Positions 4,598 to 63,559 of a stretch of 64,000 nucleotides of DNA are shown here, piece by piece. The stretch lies in the NCBI RefSeq assembly GCF_963921235.1, contig NC_086106.1, positions 107,694,001 through 107,758,000 of the forward strand, in the 5' to 3' direction. The first letter of the stretch is position 1, and each line of letters starts with the position of its first letter. Position numbers and translations under genes: made by a program. The DNA is from Mobula hypostoma. Its lineage: Eukaryota. The notes beneath the pieces were generated by a model, which saw nothing but the letters and a program-made list of their open reading frames with translations, had not been told where the DNA came from and searched no databases.

Positions 4598-4635
4598 GCA
4601 CTTTCTCATTTCTCTTCACTGAAATTTTTCGGTAG

Positions 4636-5030
4636 TTTTTACACTTTATTCTGCATTTGTTTTTTTTAAATTTACAGCACATCCACAAAAACCACGACCT
4701 TAACCAAATCAAATTAAATATTGAGCAGCAAAAGGGAGAAAAATATAAAGGCAAAAGTAAACGTACACAGCAGAGGTGCACCGCACCAAAAAACCTCAGT
4801 CCTCACCCTGTGAGAAAGTCCAATACAGGGCCCCATATCCTTTCAAAGATGTCCCCTCTGTCCTCATTACATAGTCTCAGTCTCTTCAAATGTAAAGTAT
4901 TTGCCAGTTCTCTCAGCCACAGATCGTACGTAGGCACAGAGTCCATTTTCCACATTTGCAGGATTAACTTCTTAGCAATCACCATTCCAAAGAATACAGC
5001 CATTTTTTCCATACATATTTATTCTGCATT
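4636..5030 (-). mobile_element. L1-clade LINE 3' end (ORF2 C-terminus, 3' UTR, A-rich tail)
   Basis: ORF 4803-5012 IAKKLILQMWK...WLRELANTLHLKRLR...FERIWGP matches the fish L1 ORF2 C-terminal pattern. T-run at 4636-4647. Confidence 0.7.
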
Positions 5031-5214
5031 TGTTAATTGTTTTACCACACTGTGTAATGATTTCAACTCTATTAACAGCGTGCAAGGCAAGCTTTCAGTC
5101 ATATCTTGGTACATGTGACAATAATAAACCAATACAAATGTAGTTCATATTATTAACAAAATGAACTGTGGTAATCTCTTCCAGACTCCTCTGATTGCAT
5201 TTCTCAAACACACA

Positions 5215-6062: not shown

Positions 6063-6351
6063 GGAAGGAGGAAGGAAGTGGGCTCATATGAAAGCAATCA
6101 CTTGCAAGTTTCCTTCTGGGTCGTTACTAGTCCTTCATCACAACTAGGTCTAAATCCTGGAGCTCCTTGTCACAGTGGCCACAGCAGCTCAGGGAAGTTA
6201 TTGCACCACACGTCTCAATGACAATAAATGTGAAACTCAAATTTGATAAAAAAAGACAACGCATGAGTAGATGTTAATTTATAAAGACAATATTATCAAT
6301 GAAATGAGTGTTGTTAACAAAATCAGCCTTAACATCAGCAAAACTGAATAA

Positions 6352-20409: not shown

Positions 20410-22086
20410 AGGACTGAGGATAAACTTACTCAGGCGAGGCTAAACAAAGAAATAAAATAAGCTAAAAGGGTCTATAAAGAGAAAGTAGAAAAGCTCTTCC
20501 AAGAGGGCAAAGCTAGAGATGCCTGGAAAGGTGTCAAAAGAATGGCCAGCCTCCGTAATCACCAGTCTTCATCTTACCTAAGTCGGGAGGAATGTGTAGA
20601 GCTTGCAGAAGGACTGAACAGCTCTGACTGCAGGTTTGATCAGTACGTCTTCACACTGGAGATGGAGGAGCTGACCACCACAAGCAGCACCAATACAGAG
20701 TTTCATCTGAGAGAGGTGGAGAGAGTACTCAGTAAAACACCAGGTCCAGACAACATCAGTGGGCGGCTACTGAAGCTCTGCTGTAGACAACTGTCAGTAG
20801 TTTTCTGTCATCTCTTCAGCTGCTCTCTGTCTGAGCATTCCATAGCAACCATTTGGAAAACCACCATCATATGCCCAATTCCTGCATCATACCTACACAT
20901 ACCTGGAGAGGCCGGGATCATTTGTTAGTATGTTGTTTGTGAATTTCTCCAGTGCACTTAACACCATGCGACCCCATCTTATGGGACACAAACTCCAGCA
21001 AATTAATGTAAAATCCCACCTCATACTCCTCAACCTCTCCTCCCTGACAGACAGATATCAAAAAGTGAGATATAGTAGTTATATGAACAAACATCAACTG
21101 GAGCTCCACAGAGCCTGGTTATTTCACCAGTCTTGTTCACACTGTACGCAGACGACGGCAGAAGCTCACACCCAGGCATGCAGTACATCGAGTACTCAGG
21201 TGACACAGTCACCATTGACACTACCAACCCTGATGACTGCATCAAGCAGGAAATCAATAAATTTGCTGGATGGTGCACAAACAACTATCTGGACCTGAAC
21301 CCCAGTAAAACTAAGGAAATGGTGGTGGACCTTAGAAAACAACAGTACATTGTCCCAACCCTGGAAATAAGCGGCCAGCCGATAGAGCGTGTTGGAGAAT
21401 ACAAGTACCTCGGCACAACTATAGAAAAAAAAAATCGCCTTTAAGGCCAGTGGTGGGTTGATACTCTCCAAGTGCCAACAACGACTATGTTTCCTTAGGA
21501 AGATGCGGAAACTTCAGCCCCAGCCATCGTTTCTCCAGATATATTAAAAATGCTTCGTTGAATCAATATTAACCTACAACACCACGGCACGGTTTGCAGT
21601 AATAAGCACTATCAACCTCACCCCACTCAACAGAATTGTCAGAATAAGTCGTAAAATCATTGGCCAATCACTCAGCAGCATCCTTAAGAGATGGACAATA
21701 AAGAAGGCTCAACAAATGGTAGAGGACATGACACATACACTTCACACATACTACACTCTCATGCCATCTAGACGCCGCTACAGATCCCTGCCCATCAGCA
21801 CCAGAAGAGCCTTATCCAGTTTTGTGCCTTCCTCCATTTGCCTTCTCAACTCCCAATTTTGAATATATAGTATGCATAGCACCTTTGAGAGTAAAAACAG
21901 TTCTATTATGTGTATTTGTATTTTAAATTACATGCATTAATTTTTAGTATTTATTATTTATTGTGAGTATTTTATGTTGTATTTAACCATATATCATGTG
22001 CTGTTGTGTATCTTAAATTCTGTGACGTTGTCCTTACCACTGCACAAATGAAGTTCCTTATGGAAAATAAAGTGAATTGAATTGAA
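20410..22086 (+). mobile_element. Rex1/Babar LINE, internally deleted and decayed
   Basis: KTPGPDNISGRLLK, LFVNFSSALNT, SPVLFTLYADD, WCTNNYLDLNPSKTKEMVVD, YKYLG and MPSRRRYRS. Ends AATAAAG(TGAAT)n. Confidence 0.85.
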
Positions 22087-33946: not shown

Positions 33947-34420
33947 AACATGCTGGAGGACCTCAGCAGCATATATGGAAAAGAATAAACAGTGGATGTT
34001 TAAGGCCAAGACCCTTCTTCAGGACTGAGAAAGAAGGGGGAAGATGCCAGAATAAAAAGATGGGGTGTGGGGTAAAGGAACAAAGCTAGCTGATAGGTGA
34101 AGCCAGGTGGGTAGGAAAGGTCAAGGGCTGTAGAAGAAAGAATCTGATAGAAGAGGAGAGTAGACAATAGAAGAAAGGGAAGGAGGAGGGGACCTAGGGG
34201 GAAGTAATAGGAGGGTGAGAAGAAGTAACGGGTCAGAGTGGGGAATAGAGGAGGGGGGATTTGTTTACTGGGAGGAAAAATCATTATTACTACTCCCCCC
34301 GGTTCCCAGCCTCCTTCGTCGACTGTTTATTCTTTTCCATAGATGCTGCCTGACCTGCTGTGTTCCCCCAACATTTTGTGTGTGTTGCTTTGGAGTTCCA
34401 ACATCTGCAGATTTTCCTGA
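33947..34420 (-). mobile_element. Penelope-like pLTR with an inverted partial pLTR at the other end
   Basis: 33947-34270 is a minus-strand pLTR. 34317-34420 is a plus-strand copy of its terminal part, forming inverted arms. Confidence 0.75.
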
Positions 34421-36004: not shown

Positions 36005-36360
36005 AATAGTAAGGAGGGAGAATTTGTTTCCTTAAAGCACATTAGTGAATTAAATGGATTGTTGAGACAATCCAGTATTTTCATGATCATGCAACACACA
36101 TCAAAGTTGCTGGTGAATGCAGCAGGCCAGGCAGCCTGGCCTGCTGCGTTCACCAGCAACTTTGATGTGTGTTGCTTGAATTTCCAGCATCTGCAGAATT
36201 CCTTGTGTTTTCATGATCATGATTGTTGATCTGAATGTTTCATTCTAATTTTGTAGAACTTTAATTTCAACTATCCATCCGCCTTGGGGAGATCTGAATG
36301 TAAGAGTTTGAACTGATCACCCAGGTGCCTGGACAGCTTGCCAAGTGACGCAGCAGTTGT
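36005..36360 (-). mobile_element. Old Deu-domain-like SINE (SacSINE/AmnSINE-type), interrupted by a hairpin insertion
   Basis: tttccttaaagcacattagtgaa...acaatccagtattttcatgatca resembles the reverse Deu-SINE consensus as I recall it. Confidence 0.45.
36092..36207. mobile_element. 116-bp palindromic PLE-derived mini-element
   Basis: 42-bp inverted arms (36091-36132 / 36134-36175, one mismatch) and a 14-bp TSD TTTTCATGATCATG (36078-36091 / 36208-36221). Confidence 0.9.
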
Positions 36361-39736: not shown

Positions 39737-41029
39737 TTCCTTCGTCCTGGAATGAAAAGCCTCATCCTGACAGCAGATGTGGTGGAGACGGAGGAATTGC
39801 GAGAAGGGGATGGAATTTTTGCAAGAGACAGGGCGAGAAGAAGAATAGTCCAGGGAGGGAGAGCGGTGGGAAAGGATGGACGACGGAGATGACCTCCTTT
39901 TTTAAGGAAAGGGGCTTCCCTTCCTCCACTATCAACCCTGCTCTCAAACACATCTCTCCGATTTCTCGCACATCTGCTCTCACCCCATCCTCCCGCCACC
40001 CCACTAGGAATAGGGTTCCCCTTGTCCTCACCTACCACCCCACCAGCCTCCGGGTCCAACATATAATTCTCCGTAACTTCCGCCACCTCAAATGGATCCC
40101 ACCACTAAGCACATCTTTCCTCCCCCACTCCCCGCTTTCCACAGGGATTGCTCCCTACGCGACTCCCTTGTCCATTCGTCCCCCCCATCCCTTCCCACCG
40201 ATCTCCCTCCCGGCACTTATCCTTGTAAGCGGAACAAGTGCTACACATGCCCTTACACTTCCTCCCTTACCACCATTCAGGGCCCCAGACAGTCCTTCCA
40301 GGTGAGGTGACACTTCACCTGTGAGTCGGCTGGGGTGATATACTGCGTCCGGTGCTCCCGATGTGGCCTTCTATATATTGGCGAGACCCGACACAGGCTG
40401 GGAGACCATTTCACTGAACACCTATGCTCTGTCTGCCAGAGAAAGCAGGATCTCCCAGTGGCCACACATTTTAATTCCACGTCCCATTCCCATTCTGATA
40501 TTGTCTATCCACAGCCTCCTCTACTGTAAAGATGAAGCCACACTCAGGTTGGAGGAACAACACCTTATATTCCGTTTGGGTAGCCTCCAACCTGATGGTA
40601 TGAACACTGACTTCTCTAACTTCCATTAATGCCCGACCTCCCCTTCACACCCCATCCTTCCTTCCTTTCTTTCTTTCTTCCTTTCTTTCTTTCTTTATTA
40701 ATTATATATTTTTCTCTCTCTCTTTTTCTCCCTCTGTCCCTCCTTGCACATCCTCTGGGTTCCCCCCCCCCATTTCTTTCTCCCTAGGCCTCCCGTCCCA
40801 TGATCCTCTCAGATCCCTTTTGCCAATCAACTTTCCAGCTCTTAGATTCATCCCTCCCCTTCCTGTCTTCTCCTATCATTTTGGATCTCCCCCTCTCCCT
40901 CCCACTTTCAAATCTCTTACTAACTCTTCTTTCAGTTAGTCCTGACAAAGGGTCTCGGCCCGAAACGTCGACTGTACCTCTTCCTATAGATGCTGCCTGG
41001 CCAGCTGCGTTCACCAGCAATTTTTATGT
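39737..41029 (+). mobile_element. Penelope-like element (RT C-terminal linker, GIY-YIG endonuclease, pLTR) with 5' inversion
   Basis: FFKERGFP, RVPLVLTYHP, CKRNKCYTC, VIYCVRCSRCGLLYIGET..RLGDHFTEHL and EEQHLIFRLGSLQPDGMN. 39737-39853 is inverted. Confidence 0.92.
40937..40974 (+). ncRNA. Minimal type-I hammerhead ribozyme motif (G8A, CpG-decay-type variant)
   Basis: TAGTC-CTGACAA-A-GGGT ctcg GCCC-GAAA-CG-TC-GACTG. Confidence 0.7.
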
Positions 41030-41273
41030 GACTCCACAACCTATGGGCTCACATTCAAAGATTCTACAGCTCAGTATATTTATTTTCCTTTTTTATTATT
41101 TGCAAGATTTGTCATCTTTTGCACATTGGTTGTTTGTCAGTCTTTATTATTTTTAGTTTTTCATAAATTCTATTGTAGTTTTTATTTTTTTGCAAATGCC
41201 TGCAAGAAAATGAATCTCAAGGTAGTATATGGTGACATATATATAATTTGATGATAAATTTACTTTGAAAAGG

Positions 41274-47670: not shown

Positions 47671-48197
47671 CACACAGTAGCCACTTTATTAGGTACACGG
47701 ACACCTGGTTGTTAATGCAAATATCTAATCAGCCAATCCTGTGGCTGCAACTCAATGCAAGAAAACATGCAGATGTGGTGAAGCAGTTCAGTTGTTCAGA
47801 CCAAATATCAGACTGTGGAAGAAATATCATCTAACTGACTTTGACTATAGAATGAATTCTGGTGCCAGACAGGGAGCTTTGAGTACCTTTGAAACTGCCA
47901 ATCTCCTGGGATTTCTCCAGAGATCAGAATCTCTAGAGTTTACAGAGAATGCTTCAGGGAAAAAAAACACCCAGTGAGTGGCAATTCAATGGGCAAAAAG
48001 ACTTTGTCAATGAGAGAAGACGGGGAGAATGGCCAGAATGCTTGAAGCTGACAGGAAGGGGACAGTAACTCAAGTAACCACATGAAAATACAACATGTCG
48101 AACCTTGAAATGGATGGTCTACAGCAGCAGAAGACGACAAAAAGACACTCTGGCCAATTTATTAGGTACAGTAGGTATCTAATAAAGAGACTGACTA
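47671..48197 (+). mobile_element. Non-autonomous Tc1-like element
   Basis: TIR cac.cagt.gccactttattaggtaca and a transposase N-terminal relic (LTDFD..GARQG..ETANLLGF). Second copy at 62711-63279. Confidence 0.75.
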
Positions 48198-48899
48198 TAT
48201 GCTCCGTATATTTACCTTGAGATTCATTTTCTTCCCGGAAAATAAAGAAATACAATAGCATTAACAAAAAAAACTATAGATAGGCAGAGACTGACAAATT
48301 GACAAACAATATTTGCAGCTAATGATTTATTTAAGTCTCATCTTACAATGTAGAAAGAAAATTCTTCCCATCAAAACTCTGTGAGCTGTCAGAGCAATCA
48401 AACAAAAACCTTTTGCAACTTACTCTTCCTGACATACCCATGAACTGTCCCTGTTCTCCAGCTGCCACCTATATTGAGGGCAATACAGCAAACTAGCCCA
48501 CTGACCAGCATATGCTAGAGATGTGAGATGAAATTGGAGCACCCAGGAGAAACCCACAGAATCACAGGAAGAACATGGACAGCTCCAGAGTCAAGATCGA
48601 ACCCGAGGTACAGGACCAATGATGCAGCAGAACTACCTGCTGTGGTGCTGGCTGAGTACAGGAACAGGAGCTCATGTTGTGAGAGTAATTGAAATGTGAG
48701 GGAAGAACACAAGTACCAGCATGGGTTGTTTACCTGAAAGCTTGTTTCTTTGCTTATTTCCTTGTAATTCTTCGAGCACACTTAGGCTTGCTGGGACATG
48801 GAGAGCCAAGAGATAGAAAGTCTTAATGAGCTTTTGCTCATTCTTCATACTGTTTTGTTGAGGAATCACCATGAGGATTTCATCGAGGTCACTTCATTT

Positions 48900-49261
48900 A
48901 GATAATATAACTCATCACAGATAGGAGTCCTTTTGCCCACAATGCTGTGCCAACCCTTTAGTCGACTGTAAGATTAATCCAAGCCGTCCCTTCTCCATAG
49001 CCCTCCATTTTCCTTTCACTCATGTTCACTAAGAGCCTCTTAAATATCCCAAATGTATCTGCTTCTACTACCTCTCCTGGCAGCACATTCCACACATCTA
49101 CCGCTCTCTGTGTAAAGCAAAACTACCTCTGACAGTCCCCCCCTGTACTTTCCTCCTCCCATCACCTTAGGGTTATGCCCCCTCATAATAGCCACTTCCA
49201 CCTTGGGAACAAGTCTCTGGCTGACTACTCAATCTATGTCTTCTACCATCTTGCATAGCTC
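48900..49261 (-). mobile_element. CR1 3' half (target of the Gypsy insertion)
   Basis: CR1 ORF2 end and 3' UTR on the minus strand, cut exactly at the LTR start. Confidence 0.85.
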
Positions 49262-49839
49262 TGTAACACACTGGGAAGGGTTTCACTGCTAATGTGATGG
49301 TTTTCTGTGGCAGTAGTGTTTGGGTTATGGTTCGAGATAACGGGGCTTTGGAATGTGCACCGTCCAATGAGGGGAGTGCTTTTTCTTGTTGTGTGCCCGA
49401 GAACGAGGTGACCTGGGTCTTTTGTCCAGCGAGAGATGAAGAGAGAACATGCAAGAGAGGGGAGGTGATAGACTGCAGGATGGAGAGGGCTTGGAGTGGG
49501 GCCGGGAGTCAATGAAGCCCAGGGGAAATTGATGGAGGAGCAGACGAAGGGGAAACCATGAGCTCCAACTTGTGCACATTAGACTGTTTCATTGAAATGG
49601 ACCCTTTTCTTTCTGTTTTTATTTACTAACCCTTTAGTCAAATTAAGAATTATAAAGCTAAATCATTTAATTGCATATAGTGTACTATCTGTTATTTCGT
49701 GGTACTGATTTGTAATGGAGGAACAGATCACACAGCATCCACACAAACAAGAGGTTTTATACCTCAGATTTCACATGTTCGGTGGGGCTGGAGACTGTCT
49801 TCCCTGGACTAACACCGCCAGCCGAACCTGAGGGTTACA
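49262..49839 (+). mobile_element. Gypsy 5' LTR
   Basis: TGTAAC...GTTACA termini, followed by a PBS. Confidence 0.92.
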
Positions 49840-49843
49840 ATTG

Positions 49844-49863
49844 TGGGGGTATCGTTCCGGGAT
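49844..49863 (+). promoter_or_regulatory. Primer-binding site, tRNA-Pro-like
   Basis: TGGGGGTATCGTTCCGGGAT versus the canonical tRNA-Pro PBS TGGGGGCTCGTCCGGGAT. Confidence 0.75.
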
Positions 49864-49936
49864 TGATTTATGTTGGATGCTGTGTGATTGCCCTGAGCTT
49901 TGAACCAGTGGGTTGTGTGTTTAAGTCTGTACTGAT

Positions 49937-50553
49937 ATGGATGCTGTCAGAGTTGAGCAGTGGTATGCATCCACAGGGTTACCAGTAACAAATACGTGTG
50001 TGTTGAGTGGGCTAGATATTTGTCCTCCAGATGGATTGTTAATTTGACTTTTAAGTACTGTTAAAGCTGTCGGCAAAGTTACAATTGTGGGGCAGAGGTT
50101 TGATAAAATGGCGGACACAGACTTTGTTTTAGTTCAGACTAGTGCTGACGTAACGGCAGTAGAACTGCCTGGTACGATTGGGTCCCCAGGTGAGGGAGGG
50201 GCATGGGCTGTCCGTACTTTCCGGGAGGAGGAGAGTGTAGCGAAGCGGGCCAAATCACAAGTCGAGTCTCCCATAGGTGGGGGCGGAGACTTCAAAGACA
50301 GGGTTCTCTCATTTCTGAGGAGTGAGGGGGAAGGACTGGTCGGATTTGGAAAGTCTAGTTAGTCCCTGTTCCCCCGAGATGAGTGAGGGTTCTGAGTTAA
50401 TGTCAGCTCGTACCTCTCTGGCGAATAAATGGCCCAGTGCAGAGGCAGAGGGTCCTAGTTATAGGAAGATAAGAGTGTTCTCTGGAATGAGGCCCATCCC
50501 CCAGGTGGAAGAGGAGTATGAGACTTGGACAGAGCAGACCTCTCAGTTGTTAG
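49937..50553 (+). pseudogene. Gypsy gag of PNMA (paraneoplastic Ma antigen)-like type, truncated
   Basis: MDAVRVEQW...PGEGGAWAV and SYRKIRVFSG..EEEYETWTEQ match PNMA-family motifs (PGKGGVWKV, YRKLRVFSG..EE.FE.WLEQ). Contains a stop and a frameshift. Confidence 0.8.
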
Positions 50554-53103
50554 TTTGAGGTGAGGACGGACAACAATCCCTTAACTTGTATACTGACCTT
50601 GGCAAAATTGGATGCCACAGGTGACTGGTGGTTGGCGGCGTTGTCTGCCTATGATTTCAGCCTGAAGTACCGCCGGGAAGCAGGAACATAGATACTGATG
50701 CTTTGTCTCAATGTGCGCACGAAGGGCTGGTCAGGGACGAAGAGTGGGAGAGCGTTCCTGCCTCGGGGGTGAAAGCCATGAGCCAGTTTGCCATCACGGT
50801 GAAGGCAGAGGGGAGGCAAGGGCAGGATCAAGCGGTAGATCAATTGGGAGCTTCTGATGACGCCATTCCACAAGCTTACTGTAACCTGACTGCTCTGAAA
50901 ACAAACCAGTTGCTGGAATTGAGCCCTGGGGAAGTGGCAGCTGCTCAGCGAGATGACCCGGGCATCGGTTCCATTTGGTCAGCGGTTGAAAAGGGAGACA
51001 CGGCCCAAGTGGAGAAGATGAAACACGCTGCGGTACCTCCATTACTGAAAGAATGGCCCAGATTGGAGTTGAGGAAACAGATCCTATACCGGGTCACATC
51101 GCCTCCGGACCGACCTCGGCGTCCCCGGCTGGTTCTGCCTGAGAACTATCGGAGGACGGTGTTGAAGTCACCTCATGATGATTCTGGACATTTGGGGGGT
51201 TAAAAAGACCGATGGAATGCTCAGAAATGAGTTTCACTGGCCCTGAATGAAGCCGGAGTGGAAGAATACCGCAAGTCGTGCATTGGATGCATACGGTGGA
51301 GGATGCTGCCAAATCGGGCAGCTCCCTTGTCTCACTTGCAGAGTGCGGGGCCACTGGACCTGGTGTGTAAGGATTTCCTGTCAATAGAACCCGATGCCAG
51401 CAACACGGCAAATGTCCTAGTCATCACGGATCACTACACCAGATATGCGCAGGCTTTCCCTACCAAGGACCAGAGGGTGTCCACGGTGGCCGAAGTGTTA
51501 TGGGAGAAGTATTTCATTTACTATGGCCTTCCCAGGTGGATACATAGTGACCAGGGACAGGATTTCGAGAGTAGGCTCATCCATGAGTAACTGAGCATGC
51601 TCGGAGTCAAGAAGTTGAGGACTACTTCTTATCACCCACAGGGTAATCCCCAGCTCAAGAGGTTTGACCGGACCCTGGTAGACATGCTCAGAACCTTGGA
51701 GATCAGCAAAAAGAGCAAGTGGAGTCAACATATTAGACATCTGGTCCACAGCTACAACTGTACACGAAATGAAGCTACCGGGTACTTGCCATATTTTCTG
51801 TTGTTTGGGTGCAAGGCAAGGTTTCCCATTGACTTTTGTCTTGGGACTGACGAGGAAGACCTAACATTGAAGACTTATCTGAAGTATGTGTCTGATATGA
51901 GAAGGAAGGATACTTGGTAGTGTGGAGGAGCAGAGGGATCTCGGGGTACATATCCACAGATCCCTGAAAGTTGCCTCACAGGTGGATAGAGTAGTTAAGA
52001 AAACTTATGGGGTGTTAGCTTTCATAAGTCGAGGGATAGAGTTTAAGAGTCGCGATGTAATGATGCAGCTCTATAAAACTCTGGTTAGGCCACACTTGGA
52101 GTACTGTGCCCAGTTCTGGTCACCTCACTATAGGAAGGATGTGGAAGCATTGGAAAGGGTACAGAGGAGTTTTATCAGGATGCTGCCTGGTTTAGAGAGT
52201 ATGCATTATGATCAGAGATTAAGGGAGGTAGGGCTTTACTCTTTGGAGAGAAGGAGGATGAGAGGAGACATGATAGAGGTGTACAAGATAATAAGAGGAA
52301 TAGATAGAGTGGATAGCCAGCACCTCTTCCCCAGGGCACCACTGCTCAATACAAGAGGACATGGCTTTAAAGTAATGGGTGAGAAGTTCAAGGGGGATAT
52401 TAGAGGAAGGTTTTTTACTCAGAGAGTGGTTGGTGCGTGGAATGCACTGCCTGAGTCAGTGGTGGAGGCAGATACACTAGTGAAGTTTAAGAGACTACTA
52501 GACAGGTATATGGAGGAATCTAAGGTGGGGGCTTATATGGGAGGCAGGGTCTGAGGTTCGGCACAACATTGTGGGCCGAAGGGCCTGTACTGTGCTGTAC
52601 TATTCTATGTTCTATGTTTGAAGCTGAAAAAGGCTTATGAATTAGCTGAGATCGCGGCTGCCAAGCAGAATCAAGGAAATAAGAGGAGGTACGATCAAAA
52701 GGTGAGGTTCTCCCAACTCCTGCCGGGAGACCGAGTCCTCATAAGGAATTTGGGGCTACCTGGGAAACATAAGTTGACTGACCACTGGGCGGCTACGCCC
52801 TATGTGTGAAAAGTCAGATGTCAAATGTACCAGTTTTCCGGGTGAAACCAGAGGATGGGAATGGGCCTGTCAAGATTCTCCATCGGAACTACCTTCTGCC
52901 TCTGGGACAAGAGGTGCAAGTTGACCCAGAGCCTGACCTGGAGCTTACACCTAGTAAAAGGACTCTGCAGCGATGCGGGCAACTGAAGGACGAACAGCAG
53001 GAGAGGCTAGACTGGCCCCCACCCCTGAGTGGGTTACTGACTTGGAGGATGAGGAAATGGAGGTATGGTATGTGCTGCCTTTTGCTAACTCCCCATTGAT
53101 TGA
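50554..53103 (+). pseudogene. Gypsy pol remnant: RNase H C-terminus and integrase, interrupted by CR1
   Basis: FEVRTDNNPL..AKLDATG..YDFSLKYR, HDDSGHLG..CIGC, LVCKDF, ITDHYTRYAQAFPT, HSDQG, TTSYHPQGNPQ and PGDRVLIRN. Confidence 0.9.
51905..52617 (+). mobile_element. CR1 3' fragment nested in the Gypsy integrase
   Basis: ORF 51922-52554 EQRDLGV..RPHLEYC.QFWSP..RGDMIEVYK with a (TTCTATG) tail. The integrase resumes as LKKAYELAE. Confidence 0.9.
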
Positions 53104-53104
53104 T

Positions 53105-53222
53105 TCTCGGCCCGAATCATCAACTGTTTATTCATTTCCATAGATGCTACCTGACCTGCTGAGTTCCTCCAGCATTTTGTGTGTGTTGCTTTGGAGTTCC
53201 AGCATCTGCAGACTTTCTCATG
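53105..53222 (+). mobile_element. PLE pLTR terminal fragment at the left inversion breakpoint
   Basis: Starts mid-hammerhead (tctcggcccgaa) and continues to cctgctgagttcctccagcattttgtg. Confidence 0.8.
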
Positions 53223-54149
53223 TTTATGTAATTGTAACTTGTTTATGCTAACCAATTGAAATTAAAACAGAATACAGATGATTTTGACCTGAGTTGTCCA
53301 GTGGGCAGGCGTGTGGTGAAAATAGGACACCCATTCATTCTTGTTGCAGTGGACCTAGTCACCTGGGGATCTGGGCCACTTTTGCATGTCCCACGTGGGC
53401 GAAGTCCACTGCAACTGTCTAGTTGAAGAAACGAATGAAGAACTTCTAGTTTTGAATATTAGATTTGCATCAGCTGGAGGTACAGGGCAACATTAATGAG
53501 GGAGTTACAAATCATAAATTGGGGTCTCGAAAGCCAGAGTAAAAAGTAGAGACAAGATACTCCAGATGTGGAGGAAACAGCGTGATGGAAGAACTCAGCT
53601 GTTTGAGCAGCATCTGTTGAGAGAAAGAAACCATCGACATTTCAGGTGGAAACCCTGCATCGGGACAGAGTGGAGCAGCAGCGAAGCACGGTAGGAATGT
53701 GGTCGAAGAGCCAGAGGAACCACAGAAACGGAGTGGTCAAGAATTCCCAGTGGAGAAAGGATGAAAACCTCTTCAAAATTGGCACATCATGGAGACTTCA
53801 GAGTGGAGTAGTAAAGTGGAGACACAGGAGACTGCTGGATTCTGGCGCAACAGACATTTTTTTGTTGATCCTGTAAGCACACATCTTCTCCCTGCCCCAG
53901 CAAACAAAACGTTCAGTGTATTTTGTACTGCTTTATGAGCAGCAACCAAACAGAAAATGCAGCGGCTGCTGGAAATCTGAAATGAAGAAAAAATGCTGTA
54001 AATAATCTCCAAAAAGATATCCTGCCAAAGGGTCCCCGAAAATTGACTGTACTTTTTTCCCCCATAGATGCTGCCTGGCCTGCTGAATTCCTCCAGAATT
54101 TTGTTTGTTGCTCCATTAAGATAGTATTCATGGACGAAGAACCTCGAAG

Positions 54150-54400
54150 AGGTTGTAGAGTCTCAATGATCCAGAGATCTATGTTGGCAGGAGTCAGGGC
54201 CTTGTGCTTTGATTCTTGGTAGGGTCACTCATGCCAAGCAGGTCAAAGGGTAAAGGCCAAACTAAGAGTTGTCCACCGGTCCTCCAGGTTCAGGGGTTCA
54301 GCTCAGGACTAACAACCCTGATTGGTCAAACAAAATTGCAGTGAAGATGCAGAACATTCACTGCTGCCCCAAGTGCCAGTCGTGTAACAGGCTGTAAATT
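54150..54400 (+). mobile_element. Probable RTE 5' UTR-derived repeat
   Basis: ggtcctccaggtt..ggggtt..ctaacaaccc is a motif common in RTE 5' UTRs. Confidence 0.45.
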
Positions 54401-55961
54401 AATAAGAAATGGACAAAGAAGCAAAATTAATGTTTCAGGTCAAAGCACTTTCAATAAGAATTAGGAAAAATTATGCACAGAACAAGTTCATAGAGACAGG
54501 GAAAGGAAATGGGGATCAAGATGAAAGATGAAAGGTCAGGAAAAGGGTGGAAGGTAAAAGAGATTAAATAAAAAGAGATGCAGGATTGGGTGTAAGAAAT
54601 GATAAAGGCATCAGTGAAAAATAAACAAGAGAAAATTTCTTTACTATTTTCCATAGATGCTGTTGGCCTGCTGATTCCTCCAACATTTTGCGATTGAAAA
54701 ATAAAGTTGGGTTATAGGAGATGTAAATGACTCTTTAAGGCTTATTAGTTAAATTAACTAGTGTTAAGAACAAATGGGCAAAATGTTAATGGCAAAGTTA
54801 TTTATGGCCGTCAGTTGCGCTATACATTGCTTTGGAAAAGAAAGTGTATGAACGGACATTGCATAATGTTTCTAGATGATGTAGTTATCATTGTTGAGTG
54901 ACTGGCAAGCTGTTAGTGAGAAACAGCACCCTGAAATACTGCCTATGCATTTCTTTCAACAGATGCTGTCTGACCCATTGAGATCCCTCAGCAGATTATG
55001 TTTTGCTCCAGATTGCAGTATCTACAGTCTTCATTGTTTCCCTAACTGTGTTACATACTTCATAACCCAATGTCTCTCATCCTTTCCATCCTCCTCACCA
55101 CAACTTCTTGTACAAGCACCTGAAAATCTTGGAGCCCATTCTCTCACTCATATTGTGTCATATTTCATTAGTCAAGTTCACTTCTATGCAACTTCTCTAA
55201 TTCTAAGGCTGGTTATGAGCAGTGGAGGCTTACTAGAATGGAGTGCAAAAGGTTGATCCATTTCTATTTTGGCCGGGGAGTCAACAGAATACTTAGAACT
55301 GGTTAGTTGTTCAAATCATTGCCATCAGATTCCTGAATGGACATTCAACCTATGAACACTATCTCACTATTTGGTTTTTCTTTTTTGGCACTATAATTTA
55401 ATTTAACTTTTTTAATATATATACTTACTACAATTTACAGTTATTATTATATATTGCAATGTACTGCTACTACATAACAATAAATATCATGACATATGCC
55501 AGTGATATTAAACCCAATTCTGATTCATTGAAGAGCATGTATTGACATGGTGTCTTCATTCCAGTCAATGGTTCTTGATTAGTTGCACTCAAGCACATTT
55601 TTGAAGTTAGCCTATTATTGGCGTGAATTTTCTCAACAAATGCACTGAAAGTCCTATTGCTGCATGTAATCAGAGCTTTGGCTACAGATGGCAATGATAA
55701 AATACAGATTCACCTTCAAGGCAGAATCGATTTTATGATTCCCAAGGAACCTGTCATAAAAACATTTGTAGTTAAGCCTGAGTATGGGGTTCAGGACAGG
55801 ACTGTCAAGGGAATTCTTTGCCTAATACTTCAAACTATAATTCACTTATCCACATGTGGTTTACAGATGTTTTGCTTGGAAGGAAGAAAGAATGATTTTG
55901 GATCAATGGTCATCATTCTCCTGGGTTTCCTATAGTACTTCCAAAATAATTCTGTGCAGAG

Positions 55962-56345
55962 ATATGGGAAGATTCCATCAGTGTGGAAGAACAGAAGGAT
56001 CTTGGGGTCCATGTCCACAGATCCCTCAAAGTTGCCATGCAAGTTGATAGGAAGGTCTGGAAGGCAATGGTGTGTTAGCCTTTATTAACGGGGGGGGCGG
56101 AGGGATTGGGTTTAAGAGTCATGAGCTAATGTTATAGTTCTATAAAACTCTGGCTAACCACACGGGGTATTATATTCGTTTCAAGTTGCCTCATTATAAG
56201 AAGGGTATAGAAGCTTTAGAGGGTATGCAGAGGAGTCTTGCCAGGATGATGCCTGGACTAGAGAGGGTGTCTTATAAGACTAGGCTGAGTGAGCTCGAGC
56301 TGATCTCTTTGGAGTGACGGAGGATGAGGGATGACTTGATAGAGG
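55962..56345 (+). mobile_element. CR1 5' half, continuous with 48900-49261 after re-inversion
   Basis: Ends ..gacttgatagagg (DLIE). The reverse of 49257 onward continues tatgcaagatgg..catagat. Confidence 0.85.
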
Positions 56346-56903
56346 TGTAATCCTCAGGTTTGGCCAGCAGCATGAGTCTAGGGACAGTCTCTGGCCCCGC
56401 CAAACGTGTGAAATCTGAGGTGCAATACCTTTTGTTTGTGTGGATGCTGTGTGATCTGTTCCCCTTTACAAATCAAGTACCACAAAATAACAAACAGTAC
56501 ACCATATGTAATTAAACAATTTAGCTTTATAATTCTTAATTTGACTAAAGGGTTAGTAAAGTAAAACAAAAAGAAAAGGGCCCATTTTAATGAAACAGTC
56601 TAATGGGCACTAGTTGGAGCTCACGGTTTCCCTTCCACTGATCCTCCGTAGATTTCCCCCGGGATTCGTCGACTCCTGGCCCCACTCCAAATCCACTCCA
56701 TTCTGCAGTCTACGACCTCTCCTTACTCAAGTCTTCTCTCTTCAAAAGACCCAGATCACCTTGTTTTCAGACACACAACAAGAAAAAACACTCCCCTCAT
56801 TGGACGGTACACATTCCAAGGCCCCGTTATCTCGAACCATAACCCAAACACTACTGCCACAGAAAACCATCACATTAGCTGTGAAACCTTACAGCATATT
56901 GCA
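56346..56903 (-). mobile_element. Gypsy 3' LTR (inverted relative to the 5' LTR)
   Basis: The reverse complement aligns end to end with 49262-49839. It is preceded on the minus strand by a purine-rich PPT (56904-56922). Confidence 0.92.
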
Positions 56904-57310
56904 CTCTCCACCTCCACACCAAATTTAGTCATATCCTCATGACTTTGAGATAATTTGCCAACCCTTCATGCAAAGCAGAAAGTCCAACCCAGGTGTAAAA
57001 GGCAGTGACAGAGCTCCCCAAAGCAGTAGGTACCACATTCTGTTCCACTGGTGCTACATAGGCCAGCCTATCCGGTGGTCTCCTGATTCCTTGAGACTTC
57101 CATACCCCTCATCTGCTTCTTCAGGTTCCGACACTACTGGGGATACTTCTGGTCTACCTGGCGAGGCCCTCCCTGGTTTATCAATCGTGCCCTCCTGCAA
57201 CTCGAACCCCTCTTCATCCCTTGCAGGGTCCTGCTGAAACCCAGGCTGTCCGCAGATAGCTTCCCCCCACCCCCCATCCCACGCTTTCCCCTGACTCAGC
57301 ATGAGAAGGG
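56904..57310 (-). mobile_element. Gypsy pol C-terminus / 3' region with PPT
   Basis: Minus strand encodes SQGIRRPPDRLAYVAP, a typical Gypsy integrase tail, and leads into the PPT and LTR. Confidence 0.8.
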
Positions 57311-57629
57311 TTGGGGTTCAGGTCAGCCCTGCTGAGTTCCACCAGCATTTTGTATGTGTCATATTAAATTTCATGTTATAATAAGTGTTACTGGCAGCAT
57401 CAAATGTCAATTTTGCATACAGTTTTCCCCACCATCTTTCCTGTTGGTTGAATTTAAAACATTTTACCTTTGAATAGATTGAAAGAAACAGTGATCTGAT
57501 TGAATATACAAAGAAGTTTCATTGTTCTTCGCCTGTGGGCAAATTGGATTGGTTTCCATGAGAAGCAGTCAACTGGGCTACTGTCAATGGTGATCCCAAG
57601 TAGATCTATAAACAGAACCAAATTAGTAG

Positions 57630-57960
57630 CATTCTTCCTCTTCCTTGTTTCTATCTCACATTCCTTCTATGACTCACACTTCCTATACCACTCATCCACA
57701 CTCCACATGTACTTTTCCACATTCCTTTTCAGATTCCACCCTTCTCTTACATTTTTTCCATTTCTGTTGTCTTATCCTCTCTTCACTCCATCCAGTTACT
57801 TCTCTGCTTTACTCTTTTCCATTCCCTCTTGCTATTCCTCTTTCTCTATCCCTCATTCTCTTTCTTCACATTTCTCTCTCATTACTTCACTTGCCATTCC
57901 TTCATCTAGTCCCATTTTTTTCATCTCCTTTCTTCCTTACTTTTTCTCATTCCATCACTC
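57630..57960. repeat. Pyrimidine-rich low-complexity tract
   Basis: About 330 bp of mostly C/T with very few G on the plus strand. Confidence 0.7.
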
Positions 57961-58729
57961 TTGCATTGGAATAGACAGCTGTACATTTTGCTAACATGAG
58001 CACTGATTCCATTTAAATAACACAATTCCACACTTTCTGATGTAAAAGTCCATAATTTATTTTTACTGTGTTACATTTAGAATTAATAGAAGCCTTTGTA
58101 ATTAGTGTATATCACGGGATTGCCTGGTGGTATCTTGCAGCAATCCTCTATCATTATTGTATTAATTTCTAATTATTGAAAAAGATTATGGGGGAAAGGT
58201 TACTGGAGGTTTGTTCAGCAGATAAGCACAGATGCCTATGCTGTCCTCAAAATCACAGGCAGTGACACTCACCCTCAGAAATCTTGTCTCAGGATGCCTC
58301 TGCTGAGTTAAACCACACTTGATACTTTGCAACATATCGATGCAGTGGAGATGTCCATCTTACTGGCTTAGATTTATAAAAGTTACTTTTGCATTCAGAA
58401 GTGGAAGGGGAAGTTGCAGCCTTGCAGGGCTCTCAAAACTGAAAGGGTTCATAGACAATATTTTTTCCTTTTAGACAGCCACTTAACATCCACTTTTGTG
58501 GCCATTGCACAAGGAGATTTCCTCCTGGCCCACTGATCTTCAGAAGCAAATATCAGATTGTTCTGCCACCCCCTCAGACCATTATAGATTGAACCTCTTT
58601 CTTGCCAATACACCCCAGTGTCAGAAAGAATGCTACGTATATTATGGTATGACCCTTCACAAGTAATTCATTGAGTTGGGAGCCACGGGGGAAGCCGACG
58701 CAATCTCACAGGCTCTCACAAAGTTCTAG

Positions 58730-59032
58730 AACATAGAACATATGACATTACAACACAGTACATACCCTACAACCTATATTGTTGTGCTGACCTTTTAACC
58801 TACTCTAAGATCAATCTAACCCTTCCCTCCCACATAGCCTTCCATTTTTTTGCATCCATGAGCCTATCTAAGAGTCTCTTAAACGTCCCTAATGTAACTA
58901 CTGTTACCCGGCAACATGTTCCACACACCTGACACCCTCTGTGTAAAAAAAAACTTAACTCTGACATCACCCCCATACTTTCAAATCACCTTAAAATTGT
59001 GGCCCCTCATACTAGCCATTTCCATCCTGGGA
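58730..59032 (-). mobile_element. CR1 3' fragment
   Basis: aacatagaacat tail and reverse CR1 ORF2 end. Confidence 0.7.
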
Positions 59033-60980
59033 CAAAAGCCACAATCAGTGTTTTACAGACAGCTCTTCCACTCAGCCACAGGATTTCAGAATGTTTCATG
59101 AACCCACGAACACTACTTCGATATTCCTCCTTTGCAGGATTTATTTATTGTTACTTGCAGTAATTTTTATATCTTGCCCTGTATTGCTTCCACAAAGCAA
59201 CACATTTCTTGACGTATCAGTGATTGATAATAAATTTGGTCTGATTCTGCTACCAATGTGGAAAATTCAATCCCTAATACCTGAAACATAGTGGTTACAC
59301 AAGGGTGAACATTAATACTGTTTAAAACTGGGTGCAATTGAATTCCCCAAATTTGTAGCATTGTTTTGAGGCTAGAAAAAGTTGCAGACGAATTTTAAGG
59401 ATATTGGCACTTAGAGTTTCAACTTCAATTTTACATAGTGAGAATGTTATTTGAGATTCCAATGGGTGCTAACAGCTGGGCACCATTAAATATTTGATTG
59501 AATAAAGTAGAAAACATTTTAAATTCAAATAGTTAAAACCACAGCTATGTATTGTTAATAAAACAAAGAAAATGGCAATGGAGCAGCCAAAAAAATTGTT
59601 ACTTCAATGGTTGACTTTAAACTGTTGCCAGGACTTGATATATAACAATGAGTGAAATGGAAGCCAATTCATAGTGATGGTCAGTTTTTGTATTTGAATT
59701 TCAGAAGTATAAAATCTCATAATGCAGCACATCAAAGACCTGAATATACTCAAGCTTGATAATTTCTTTCTCAGATGTGGTAATGCAGAATGGTGGACGC
59801 ATTCCTGACATACTTCTTCTTGTCCAAATTAACTCTTCTCTATGATGGTATTTAATCATTGAAGAATAGAGTTGTGCATATAATTTTAGTAGCATTAGCA
59901 GCTAACATTGAGTTAATATTTGCAAATAGAATAGTAAATATTTTGGCAGTTACCTTTCTTAAGTTTTCTCCCTTAATTTCTTTAGAGTTGCAATACACTC
60001 ATCATAAATTGATCTATTGATTCAAAACCAATACTTTAATTGCCCTTGCGACATTATATTCTGGACTACCCCAAATTAAATATCTTCTTCAGTTTTGAAA
60101 CTGATCATGAACAGAGTTTAATTTAATTATTCATTTTTATGTAAATAACATATCAATAAAACTACATGCAAAATCTTCAAAGATTCAAAGTACATGTATT
60201 CTCAAAGTATGTATGCAGCATCCAACCCTGAGATTTGTTATCCCACAGACAGCCAAAAAACATGGAGCCCAAAGAAAAACATCTAACTCTTTGAATTGCC
60301 TATTTGACTTGACAATCTGTACTTGCTTCCTTACAAAACGAAGGAAGCAATTTTAATCAAAATTACTTGCCATTTTACAATAAATGAAAAGCAAATACAG
60401 CACATTCTGGAAATCTGTGCTATGTTCTAAAATCAGAAATGCAGGAGATCCTCAGCATTGGTGGAGAGAGAAATAGGGTTAACATCTAAAGTCAGAGGCC
60501 CTTCATCAGAATAGAGGTAATAAGAAAATAAATATATTATAGATTGCATTTACGCTCTACTTACACTCCTCTGGACAAAGCAACCACAATTAACTAAATG
60601 ACAGTAAAAGCAACTGTTGTCCATTTTTCCTTTTGTTCTCTCTGCTCCTCCCCTTCTCTGCAATTTCAAACAAGCCTGCTTTCACTTTTTTTTCTGGTTC
60701 TGATTAACGGTCGTTGACCTGAAATATTAACTCTGGTCCTCTCTCCTGAGATACTGCCTGATGTGCCCATTGTCTCCACCATTTTATGTTTTTGTACCCG
60801 ATTCACAGCATGCTCCATTTTATTTCTCATTTAAAGTTTAGAGTCATAGAGCCATAGAAAACTACAGCACAGGAACAGGCCCTTTGCCCCATTTAGTCTG
60901 TATCGAACCATTTAAGCTGTCTAGACCCATCAACTTGCACCCAAACCATAGACCTCCATACCCTTCCCACTCATGTACTC

Positions 60981-62195
60981 GTGAGTCAACATGGCTTTGT
61001 GCGTGGTAGGTCATGTTTGACCAATCTATTGGAGTTTTTCGAGGAGGTTACCGGGAAAGTGGTTGAAGGGAAGGCAGTGGATATTGTCTACATGGACTTC
61101 AGTAAGGCCTTTGACAAGGTCCCGCATGGGAGGTTAGTTAGGAAAATTCAGTCGCTAGGTATACATGGAGAGGTGGTAAATTGGATTAGACATTGGCTCG
61201 ATGGAAGAAGCCAGAGAGTGGTGGTAGAGAATTGCTTCTCTGAGTGGAAGCCTGTGACTAGTGGTGTGCCACAGGGATCAGTGCTGGGTCCATTGTTATT
61301 TGTCATCTATATCAATGATCTGGATGATAATGTGGTAAATTGGATCAGCAAGTTTGCTGATGATACAAAGATTGGAGGTGTAGTAGACAGTGAGGAAGGT
61401 TTTCAGAGCCTGCAGAGGGACTTGGACCAGCTAGAAAAATGGGCTAAAAAATGGCAGATGGAGTTTAATACAGACAAGTGTGAGGTATTGCACGTTGGAA
61501 GGACAAACCAACGTAGAACATACAGGGTTAATGGTAAGGCACTGAGGAGCGCAGTGGAACAGAGGGATCTGGGAATACAGACACAAAATTCCCTAAAAGT
61601 GGCGTCACAGGTAGATAGGGTCGTAAAGAGAGCTTTTGGTACATTGGCCTTTATTAATCAAAGTATTGAGTATAAGAGCTGGAATGTTATAATGAGGTTG
61701 TACAAGGCATTGATGAGGCCGAATCTGGAGTATTGTGTTCAGTTTTGGTCACCAAATTACAGGAAGGATATAAATAAGGTTGAAGGAGTGCAGAGAAGGT
61801 TTACAAGGATGTTGCCGGGACTTGAGAAACTCAGTTACAGAGAAAGGTTGAATAGGTTGGGACTTTATTCCCTGGAGCGTAGAAGAATGAGGGGAGATTT
61901 GATAGAGGTATATAAAATTATGATGGGTATCGATAGAGTGAATGCAAGCAGGCTTTTTCCACTGAGGCAAGGGGAGAAAAAAACCAGAGGACATGGGTTT
62001 AGGGTGAGGGGGGAAAATTTTAAAGGGAACATTAAAGGGGGCTTCTTCACACAGAGAGTGGTGGGAGTATGGAATGAGCTACCAGATGAGGTGGTAAATG
62101 TGGGTTCTTTTTTAACATTTAAGAATAAATTGGACAGATACATGGATGGGAGGTGTATGGAGGGATATGGTCTGTGTGCAGGTCAGTGGGACTAG
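60981..62195 (+). CDS. CR1 ORF2 reverse transcriptase, open 404-aa C-terminal part of a 5'-truncated element (60981-~62265)
   Basis: SQHGF..RSCLTNL, DFSKAFDKV, GVPQGSVLGP, FADD and RDLG. It has no native start, belongs to the same subfamily as 14202-17086, and interrupts an older minus-strand CR1 tail (~60845-60980 and ~62266-62375). Confidence 0.9.
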   Translation: MSQHGFVRGRSCLTNLLEFFEEVTGKVVEGKAVDIVYMDFSKAFDKVPHGRLVRKIQSLGIHGEVVNWIRHWLDGRSQRVVVENCFSEWKPVTSGVPQGSVLGPLLFVIYINDLDDNVVNWISKFADDTKIGGVVDSEEGFQSLQRDLDQLEKWAKKWQMEFNTDKCEVLHVGRTNQRRTYRVNGKALRSAVEQRDLGIQTQNSLKVASQVDRVVKRAFGTLAFINQSIEYKSWNVIMRLYKALMRPNLEYCVQFWSPNYRKDINKVEGVQRRFTRMLPGLEKLSYRERLNRLGLYSLERRRMRGDLIEVYKIMMGIDRVNASRLFPLRQGEKKTRGHGFRVRGENFKGNIKGGFFTQRVVGVWNELPDEVVNVGSFLTFKNKLDRYMDGRCMEGYGLCAGQWD

Positions 62196-62710: not shown

Positions 62711-63279
62711 TACTCAATAGTCACTTTATTGCTCAATAATGCAAAAATTTAATCAGCCAATCATGTGACAGCAACTCAATGCATAAAAGCATGCAGACAT
62801 AGTCAAGAGGTTCATTTGTTGTTCAGACCAGACAACAGAATGGGGGAAAAATGTTATCTGGATGACTTTGACTGTGGAATGATTGCTGGTGCCATATGAG
62901 GTGGTTTGAGTATTTCAGAAACTCCTGGGATCTCCTAGGATTTTCATGCATAAGGATCTCTAAAGTTTAAAGAGAAAGGTGCAATAAACAAAGTAATATC
63001 CAGTGAATGGCAGATCTGTGGGTGAAAATGCCTTGTTAATGAGAGAGGTCGAAGGAGAATGGCCAGACTGGTTACCGGTTCAAGCTGATAGGAAGACAAT
63101 AGTAAATTGAAAACTCAAATAATCACACATTATAACAGTGGTGTGCAGAAGAGCATCTCTAAACACACAACATGTCAAACCTTGAAGTGGATGGGCTACA
63201 GCAGCAGACGGATACGAACATACACTCAGTGGCCACTTAATTAGGTACAGGAGGCAGCTGATAAAATGGCCACTGAGTG
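62711..63279 (+). mobile_element. Non-autonomous Tc1-like element ending in a 57-bp mini inverted-repeat unit
   Basis: Homologous to 47671-48197. Right end TA|CACTCAGTGGCCA...TGGCCACTGAGTG|TA (63223-63279). Confidence 0.75.
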
Positions 63280-63559
63280 TAGTCAGCAGATGCTTCAAAA
63301 AGGTAACAATTAATCATGAGATGCATGCATCCAGCCAGTTCAACATACTTCAAAATAATATTTTTGGGATATTTTGATTGCAAGTGCTAATTGTTCTCAG
63401 AGCAATTGTTTTCATAAGCAAAGATTTGGGCCTTGGAAGTACATCAGTACACTTTCAGCAATAGATAGCCATAGTTCATGACATTCTCAGGGGTGATCAG
63501 CAATAAAAACAATTCTATGCTCCATTCTTTGGTGACTTACCAAATCTCCTCAAACTCCC

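Follow-up and report, generated by a model that had tools for sequence, protein, structure and literature searches.

An old 4.2-kb inversion splitting a Gypsy-type element and its host CR1, with likely Penelope-like arms at both seams

The window analysed here (64,000 nucleotides of Mobula hypostoma, contig NC_086106.1) contains a real and old inversion, which splits one old Gypsy-type LTR element together with the CR1-type LINE that hosts it. Because the breakpoints are complementary, the target site duplication (TSD) has the 4 bp of the family, the LTRs are sisters and the two halves are equally distant from other copies, the locus is read as one Gypsy inserted in one CR1 and split later, an order that a preliminary description of this DNA had also proposed. 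Thanks to the nested dead repeats, the inversion can be traced at base resolution and its age bracketed by two clocks. Pieces that likely belong to a Penelope-like element (PLE) lie at both seams, and we favour, with somewhat better than even confidence, an origin in which the two copies made by one doubly primed PLE insertion were attached to the ends of a second break, within the Gypsy. Neither this mechanism nor the arms at both seams, the 12-nt junction filler, the internal deletion and the second CR1 had been part of the preliminary description.

The split Gypsy-type element and its host CR1

The two elements and the inverted segment comprise the following features.

48927-49261, minus: host CR1-type LINE, 3' portion, lying outside the inversion on the left side of the LTR element
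49258-49261, plus: left TSD copy, GCTC (CR1 overlap and family TSD comparison)
49262-49839, plus: 5' LTR (LTR1), TG...CA ends
49842-49863, plus: PBS-like tract after LTR1, in the same context 3' of the 5' LTR in other copies
49864-50552, plus: leader and 5' stub of gag, stopping at the internal deletion junction
50553-51908, plus: decayed pol (post-RNase H region and integrase core) with many stops; rve, E=3.7e-8, on 51231-51587
51909-52621, plus: younger CR1-type 3' fragment within the integrase region, missing from other Gypsy copies, ending in a short microsatellite tail
52622-53103, plus: pol 3' region up to the left break (comparison with other copies)
53104-57315, no strand: inverted segment, 4,212 bp (copy complementarity and CR1 overlap; right seam bridged in organism C)
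53229-55975, no strand: host DNA inside the inversion, about two-thirds without repeat matches
55976-56345, plus: host CR1-type LINE, 5' portion, with the right TSD copy at its end
56342-56345, plus: right TSD copy, CCTC, at the end of the CR1 5' part; one mismatch against GCTC
56346-56903, minus: 3' LTR (LTR2; LTR comparison)
56904-56920, minus: polypurine tract before LTR2
56921-57315, minus: pol tail, from the right break (comparison with other copies)

The placement of the 5' LTR and PBS on the plus strand and of the polypurine tract and 3' LTR on the minus strand was borne out. Like other Ty3/Gypsy (Metaviridae-type) elements, the copy has two TG...CA LTRs, a PBS (which we take to be of tRNA-Pro type), a polypurine tract, a 4-bp TSD with one mismatch and RNase H before integrase. 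The last of these was established through another copy, L072, in which positions 4962-6308 correspond to window 50552-51908 and overlap a frame bearing RT_RNaseH (E=6e-15, L072 4718-5377), with the rve match of the window downstream. No reverse transcriptase match was obtained in the two other L072 frames scanned, and this region is deleted from the window copy; a PNMA_N match on the frame 50048-50359 is weak (E=0.012, below the cut-off). It had been proposed that gag and pol run along the plus strand from 49262 to 53103: the left end of the inversion stands, whereas the continuity does not, with approximately 2.9-3.8 kb missing at 50552/50553 (compared with three longer copies) and the inner CR1 piece lying at 51909-52621. 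Unlike an ordinary Ty3/Gypsy element, the copy is thus internally deleted, CR1-interrupted and divided by the inversion; it is an unremarkable dead element whose use here is as a marker.

The left break of the inversion lies at 53103/53104 and the right break at 57315/57316, the latter 5 nt from the position 57310 first suggested. The counterpart of 57315 (minus) comes 10 nt after that of 53103 (plus) in 11 of 11 other copies, so that the break cost the Gypsy 10 nt. The inversion seams share no homology. The CR1 cut by the 5' LTR does continue, as had been claimed, in the CR1 abutting the 3' LTR: projected on genomic CR1 copies, the two pieces have exactly 4 nt in common in 21 of 28 cases, while among the other seven, four give an overlap of 9-34 nt (the local alignment begins late in the second piece) and three match two different places in the locus. 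The reported GCTC/CCTC duplication holds as well, 4 bp being the TSD length in 7 of the 11 family copies examined (six perfect, one with one mismatch; the ends of the other four are unclear). Turning the segment around therefore restores both elements at once, as predicted, the Gypsy less its 10 nt and the CR1 to the base.

The two LTRs differ at 12.4% of 547 sites (74 of 567 in a second comparison) and are sisters in the tree (support 94/87). Their divergence approaches that of unrelated copies (13.1-19.6%), the tree support is moderate, and the two halves show no sign of a common subfamily, their distances to 25 copies being uncorrelated (rho -0.02). These points would suit two separate insertions of one LTR family, oppositely oriented, or non-allelic homologous recombination (NAHR) between inverted repeats. 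Such an origin is nevertheless very improbable, since the breakpoints of the LTR element complement each other to within 10 nt and those of the CR1 exactly, and LTR pairs of six other intact copies are 10.6-16.6% apart. The same complementarity rules out independent insertion of the LTRs or CR1 halves, which the preliminary description had named as fatal to its reading, and the median distances of the two element halves to the 25 other copies are equal (11.7% and 12.0%). NAHR is further opposed by the absence of inverted repeats at the breaks, the PLE arms being on the same strand and the Gypsy break having no homologous partner. A copy on the same contig that best matches the left half (L002) was considered as a duplicate of the locus and discarded, its flanks not matching.

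The LINE pieces, which we assume to be CR1, are tied to a reverse transcriptase by a chain of identity. A frame with an RVT_1 match (E=8.5e-28) contains 61556-62076, to which the inner piece (51927-52444) shows 68% identity; the host piece (55980-56349) in turn matches the inner one at 72% identity. Both pieces are thereby placed at the end of a non-LTR, RT-bearing ORF2.

The inversion in other organisms and its age

An assembly artefact, in which a misjoin flipped 4.2 kb, had been left as the alternative to a true inversion. Both seams lie in repeats, and among the contigs listed none of organism A or B bridges either of them; the right seam falls there in a gap, which was treated as uninformative. 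In organism C, however, which is approximately 9-11% diverged from the window, one 640-nt contig from another study (X9 and X11 are one sample) aligns to 57278-57703 in one piece across the right seam, with 38 nt on the Gypsy side, 45 differing letters and 7 gaps, and runs into single-copy DNA. The inversion is therefore not a misassembly. In addition, the 10-nt loss, the 12-nt filler and the absence of seam homology appear unlike the traces of a misjoin, and we regard an artefact as scarcely credible. Concerning the comparison with related species that had been recommended, organism C carries the right seam, whereas the uninverted allele was seen in none of the contigs listed, and no bridge of the left seam was found among them.

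The host DNA of the inversion is represented by single-copy contigs in organisms A, B and C. Those of organism B show 84 differences in about 4.9 kb (1.7%), and one of its contigs runs 30 nt beyond the CR1/LTR junction, which was not counted under the 31-nt rule. A comparison over 6.8 kb at 88% likeness was swamped by repeats and, among the contigs listed, gave no bridge of either seam. Organisms D-F had a share of 0.05-0.07, organism D having little or no depth in single-copy bins.

Per-lineage ages are approximately 6% for the LTRs and approximately 4.5-5.3% for the species split, and 7.6% for the long PLE arm, which differs from the family majority at 9 of 119 sites. Judged from these divergences, the age of the arm would fit an inversion between the Gypsy insertion and the split from organism C. 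The probable order would be the host CR1, then the Gypsy (LTRs 12-13% apart), then the inversion and finally the split from organism C.

Penelope-like arms at the seams and the origin of the inversion

The features at the two seams are as follows.

53105-53228, plus: left-seam PLE terminal repeat, tailed arm (arm positions 2-125)
53226-53241, plus: weak candidate PLE TSD, copy 1, score 7
57316-57327, no strand: junction filler of 12 nt, of which 8 nt are an opposite-sense copy of PLE arm positions 48-55
57328-57359, plus: right-seam PLE terminal repeat, tailless arm (arm positions 52-83), present in the bridging contig of organism C
57360-57374, minus: weak candidate PLE TSD, copy 2, pairing with 53226-53241

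The arms are likely Penelope-like, as judged from structure and from a sub-threshold GIY-YIG match (E=0.0098; 16.6 bits against a cut-off of 22.6) in one of six frames taken from two longer copies in the window, both of which terminate in this arm. Of 29 copies, 28 were parsed as two-armed, with an inverted terminal repeat pair and an optional tail on one arm, and 14 of 28 have a TSD score of 7 or more, compared with only 4 of 161 and 1 of 168 null pairs, in keeping with EN+ PLEs. What we presume by eye to be a hammerhead-ribozyme core-like motif occurs in longer PLE copies; an Rfam scan of the window gave no match at the gathering score. Hammerhead motifs are described in pLTRs of PLEs in the available part of PMC4209133.

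Arm-end counts from query-selected copies are biased by the query, and an unselected 664 kb around the window was used instead. It contains 146 PLE arms whose ends form two clusters (67 at positions 76-93 and 48 at 117-125); the seam arms end at 83 and 125. There are 32 head-to-head pairs, 20 of which combine one tailed and one tailless arm, 13 of these 20 with a clear TSD (score 8 or more). Nearby there are intact fold-backs in which a long tailed arm and a short tailless one flank a centre of 7-13 nt.

At the inversion, both arms point away from the two Gypsy ends, and their 3' ends face the two sides of one target site, as in L1-type retrotransposition-mediated inversions. The arms overlap at positions 52-83, whereas in the L1 type the pieces share an internal breakpoint and do not overlap. 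This argues against membership of the L1 type, not against working like it, the overlap being normal in intact fold-backs of the same PLE family. The split target duplication is only suggestive: a score of 7 over 15-16 nt was reached by 28 of 400 AT-matched nulls and by 1 of 168 and 4 of 161 cross-pair nulls (0.6-7%). A 4-nt target overlap considered before was dropped in favour of this candidate once intact copies revealed longer TSDs.

According to the reading preferred here, the PLE enzyme would have cleaved the two strands of an AT-rich target lying 4.2 kb away from the break in the Gypsy and elongated both ends, using its two start sites, while a second double-strand break, perhaps made by the same enzyme, would have opened the Gypsy pol tail. 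Each cDNA end could then have been linked to a Gypsy end by end joining that lost little and added a short templated filler. With the arms attached to the Gypsy ends and not to one another, the intervening DNA would have been turned around. The available text on the anole PLE protein reports cutting and extension of both strands, with reverse transcription starting at two sites that bound the tail (PMC11167929), and a precedent is found in the portions of the L1 reports at hand, where both cDNA ends of one twin-primed L1 connect with breaks already present (10.1101/2024.08.27.596794; PMC11702581).

A different course, which we hold to be unlikely though worth weighing, is that a finished short fold-back PLE broke later at its centre through hairpin or cruciform fragility and was joined to a second break in the Gypsy, the PLE being a fragile site. 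It yields a map identical to that of a single PLE insertion step, which counts against the latter, and the age test on 119 sites separates neither from the other. Moreover, the break sits where the fold centre would be, natural centres often carry short fillers, and the arm age of 7.6% is slightly above the approximately 6% of the LTRs. On the other hand, the arm coordinates suggest a weak substrate, with a shared stem of only 32 bp and a loop of about 60 nt; a second break, separate yet simultaneous, would be needed, and the inversion falls within a narrow interval with which the arm age is compatible as well.

Chance would require an ordinary two-break inversion with end joining, in which a break fell inside an older PLE and trimmed it, or two unrelated PLE scraps happened to flank the seams. 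PLE arms are common, head-to-head insertions span 4.1% of the DNA so that either break would fall inside one in 8% of cases if large deletions are allowed, and the TSD falls short of significance under the AT-matched null (7%). The screen of 664 kb also gave no second PLE-bridged inversion among 16 other testable pairs, which, together with a left seam unbridged among the contigs listed, counts against the single-insertion reading too. However, the Gypsy break lost just 10 nt, and with a similarly small loss on the PLE side the 19 short fold-backs in 664 kb give a chance for either break of 0.2-0.3% for the centre and approximately 1% for the whole insertion. The arms are, besides, one tailed and one tailless in the correct orientation, and the TSD score of their flanks is the joint highest of 36 nearby same-strand pairs. 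Coincidence is considered a poor explanation, less probable than later breakage of a fold-back. A second same-strand arm pair with a TSD score of 7 was not confirmed by the 664-kb screen.

Related systems and possible meaning

The arrangement resembles L1-bridged rearrangements as presented in the accessible parts of three reports (10.1101/2024.08.27.596794; PMC11702581; PMC13526784), with element pieces at both junctions, 3' ends at one target site, 5' ends joined to the ends of the other break, and a balanced outcome with little loss. Those events are somatic and of megabases, whereas the present one is PLE-type, inherited and common to two species, and spans 4.2 kb, with arms that overlap in sequence, no poly(A) and a TSD that is only suggestive. 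EN+ PLE insertions with inverted pLTRs, as far as the available text describes them (PMC3846280; anole Poseidon PAc, PMC11167929), likewise have head-to-head terminal repeats, a short TSD and an optional tail of 30-40 nt on one arm (about 40 nt here); the arms described here are, in contrast, unjoined, 4.2 kb apart, on the same strand and at inversion seams. An association of Penelope with breakpoints is also found in the Drosophila virilis group, where Penelope and Ulysses occur at inversion breakpoints; in the parts of these sources at hand (PMC3681739; PMC12910113) the link is cytological and the sequenced D. virilis inversion involves other retrotransposons, while both seams here are base-resolved and in a vertebrate. 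A literature search, with subscription papers mostly outside its scope, found no base-resolved PLE-bridged inversion.

The event itself looks neutral. No Pfam domain was found in the frames tested of the carried host DNA (53229-55975), a tRNA scan returned none, and among 96 of 121 non-repeat frames scanned for host genes, a scan that short exons would escape, the sole match was an RT fragment at 21079-21441. With no effect on a host gene found, the single event was therefore probably without biological consequence.

If the PLE arms were the cause, retrotransposition-bridged inversions would extend from L1 in tumours and cell culture to another class of retroelement and to the germ line, and two-ended PLE priming, so far seen in vitro, would gain in-vivo support. 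A simple genome-wide signature would follow, namely same-strand tailed and tailless arms with an inverted TSD. As a tentative conjecture, which we put at below even likelihood, PLEs may be recurring makers of small inherited inversions in cartilaginous fishes, the locus being a fossil, resolved to the base and shared between species, of one insertion bridging the two seams, a germ-line counterpart of tumour L1-bridged inversions.

As a minor observation, an ATT word adjoins the Gypsy break; it is the preferred cut of the anole enzyme, but too common to count.

One LTR element and its host CR1 in two halves

The window comes from a 3.5-Gb genome whose repeats point to a probable cartilaginous fish. 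The interval 48000-59000 was read directly and its repeats and reading frames were mapped, and other copies of each repeat were fetched from the same genome. The preliminary description had proposed an inversion of about 4.2 kb splitting a Gypsy provirus, and comparison with these copies indicates that the two LTR-bearing pieces are indeed one element cut in two. The features of this element are:

49262-49839, plus strand: LTR1, with a PBS-like tract at the expected place
50552/50553: internal deletion; three longer copies contain ~2.9-3.8 kb that is absent here, and two of the three show a 2-nt overlap
56346-56903, minus strand: LTR2, with a purine tract at the expected place

A 304-nt query from the left flank of the left break returned 11 other Gypsy-family loci, and in all of them the base matching 57315 (minus) comes 10 nt after the base matching 53103 (plus). 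The breaks are therefore complementary; the left one remains at 53103/53104, whereas this spacing moves the right one from 57310 to 57315/57316, with 10 nt lost. A pol piece and tail on opposite strands were found in none of the 29 Gypsy-family loci examined. LTR1 and LTR2 differ at 12.4% of sites, which is lower than all cross-copy values (13.1-19.6%) and falls within the range of six intact two-LTR copies (10.6-16.6%), a range that marks the family as old. Moreover, they are sisters in a tree of 24 LTRs (support 94/87), as are five of the six other pairs, which argues against two independent insertions. The left and right halves are equally far from other copies (median distance 11.7% vs 12.0%), as judged on the 25 loci, out of 30, that align over 250 sites or more in each half; across these 25 loci the two sets of distances were uncorrelated, giving no subfamily signal linking the halves. 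Decay of the window copy is evident from many stops, from a CR1 piece inside integrase and from the internal deletion of 2.9-3.8 kb.

The two host CR1 pieces were projected separately onto 28 genomic CR1 copies, and they overlap by exactly 4 nt on 21 of these. A 4-bp TSD was found in 7 of 11 Gypsy-family copies examined, the ends of the other four not being resolved. On this alignment the CR1 pieces, too, are one element, and both the single host and the 4-bp TSD of the first reading hold.

Several other copies were observed. Most Gypsy-family copies (L014, L066-L085) are internally deleted at differing points or carry CR1 or Penelope-like element (PLE) insertions, and a partial LTR at 2700-3215 of the window is 73-80% identical to the LTRs of the window element and other copies. 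Locus L080 has at 4602-5664 a strand switch inside pol with overlapping coordinates, the sole case among 29 other loci, and no PLE arm was found at the switch. Window positions 52622-52921 differ at 6 of 299 sites from a copy 1.1 Mb away on the opposite strand of the same contig (L002/L014), which shows 8-26 differences per 100 in most other bins; five other copies show 5-18 per 100 over the same positions. This segment, which ends ~180 nt before the left break, resembles the product of later ectopic gene conversion over ~300 bp. In addition, a younger LINE copy at 60897-62195 holds an open CR1-type RT frame (432 codons; RVT_1, E=8.5e-28), and another repeat has two copies ~15 kb apart (47672-48186 and 62737-63281), the second terminating in a 24-nt inverted repeat.

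Reality and age of the inversion

Public contigs of the source species and relatives were aligned to both seams, and single-copy DNA of the locus was present in runs of three organisms (A, B and C). A 640-nt contig of organism C, whose two runs represent one sample, aligns in one piece at 57278-57703 (45 other letters, 7 gaps) and comprises 38 nt on the Gypsy side, a filler, a short arm and then single-copy DNA. Because it bridges the right seam into single-copy DNA, an assembly error, the alternative initially offered, is rejected. The left seam was bridged by none of the contigs listed, and organisms A and B have a hole at the right seam. The suggested comparison with sister species thus yielded the right seam in organism C but no uninverted allele in the contigs of A, B or C.

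Divergence between organism C and the window is 10.6% at the right-seam contig and about 9% (144/1,645) pooled over four contigs. Given LTR divergence of 12-13% and a split from organism C at 9-11%, the inversion would be younger than the former and older than the latter, provided that rates are similar. The CR1 pieces, ~20% from their best relatives, are older than the LTR element, and nesting requires the same order; the proposed succession of CR1, Gypsy and inversion is therefore retained. The first observation is confirmed, and its interpretation is supported and extended.

Penelope-like arms at the seams

Both Gypsy ends adjoin fragments of one abundant short repeat, both on the plus strand, which had previously been missed:

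53105-53228, plus strand: left-seam arm (arm positions 2-125)
57328-57359, plus strand: right-seam arm (arm positions 52-83), separated from the Gypsy end by a 12-nt filler

Longer copies of this repeat continue into a reading frame that gives a weak GIY-YIG match (40311-40526), and the insertion anatomy is that reported for PLEs in PMC3846280. For PLE repeats, hammerhead motifs have also been reported (PMC4209133). Longer or two-armed copies occur in the window at 9804-10716, 33947-34416, 36090-36210 and 40094-41030.

An arm census of 664 kb fetched without selection gave 146 arms, whose ends form two clusters (67 at positions 76-93 and 48 at 117-125), matching the pair of RT start sites between which the PLE tail lies; the protein of an anole PLE cuts and extends both strands (PMC11167929). 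Among 32 head-to-head pairs, 20 combine a tailed and a tailless arm, 13 of them with a clear TSD. The window arms are likewise one of each type and would have stood head to head prior to the inversion, and nearby there are intact fold-backs in which a long arm with a tail and a short one without it enclose a centre of 7-13 nt. From these features the second break falls in the middle of an apparently single PLE insertion. The flanks offer a TSD candidate of 15-16 nt in the family's register, which ties for the top score (7) among 36 nearby same-strand pairs; nulls score as high in 28/400 AT-matched cases and in 1/168 and 4/161 cross-pair cases, and a split PLE TSD is no more than suggestive. 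Within the filler, 8 nt copy arm positions 48-55 in the opposite sense, possibly as a templated patch; other 8-9 nt matches arise in the region by chance.

Formation and frequency of the inversion

The 664 kb contain 19 short fold-backs, a density at which either break would fall at a fold centre by chance in 0.2-0.3% of cases and within a whole short fold-back insertion in about 1%. The chance of such a hit rises to 8% once every kind of head-to-head insertion is counted and large deletions are permitted. Since the Gypsy break lost just 10 nt, a causal link between PLE and inversion is the likelier case.

The favoured reading, held with moderate confidence, is that the inversion formed during PLE insertion: both ends of the PLE target would have been extended, after which the resulting pair of cDNA ends would have become attached to a second break, one to each side, at a distance of 4.2 kb. 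Human L1 offers a parallel, since a single twin-primed insertion is reported to engage pre-existing breaks with both of its cDNA ends (10.1101/2024.08.27.596794). It has also been reported that a twin-primed L1 intermediate yielded translocations in place of insertion (PMC11702581) and that L1 cDNA intermediates recombine with programmed breaks (PMC13526784). The long arm departs from the family majority by 7.6% (9/119 sites; median of 28 copies, 7.0%), which would fit the inversion's age window and is also compatible with an earlier insertion, as expected if a later break struck a finished fold-back PLE, a possibility to which we give clearly less weight than to inversion during insertion; a chance coincidence of break and PLE is given less again. 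NAHR was rejected, the geometry that it requires being absent.

The 664 kb (130 pairs) were also screened for cases in which a tailed and a tailless arm share a strand and the two halves of a repeat complement each other at the inner ends. This retrieved the window locus, and no second PLE-bridged inversion was found in the 16 other testable pairs. One further same-strand pair, tailless and tailed (L169-L170; contig 107532502 and 107539717), lies 7.2 kb apart with a TSD score of 7, and its inversion was not confirmed in the screen for complementary halves. No host domain was found in 96/121 non-repeat frames scanned, and the inversion looks neutral.

Inversions read from split repeats are ordinary, and a base-resolved, inherited PLE-bridged inversion was not found in the literature searched. 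In Drosophila virilis, the reported link between Penelope and breakpoints is cytological (PMC3681739; PMC12910113), whereas the window inversion is resolved to the base.
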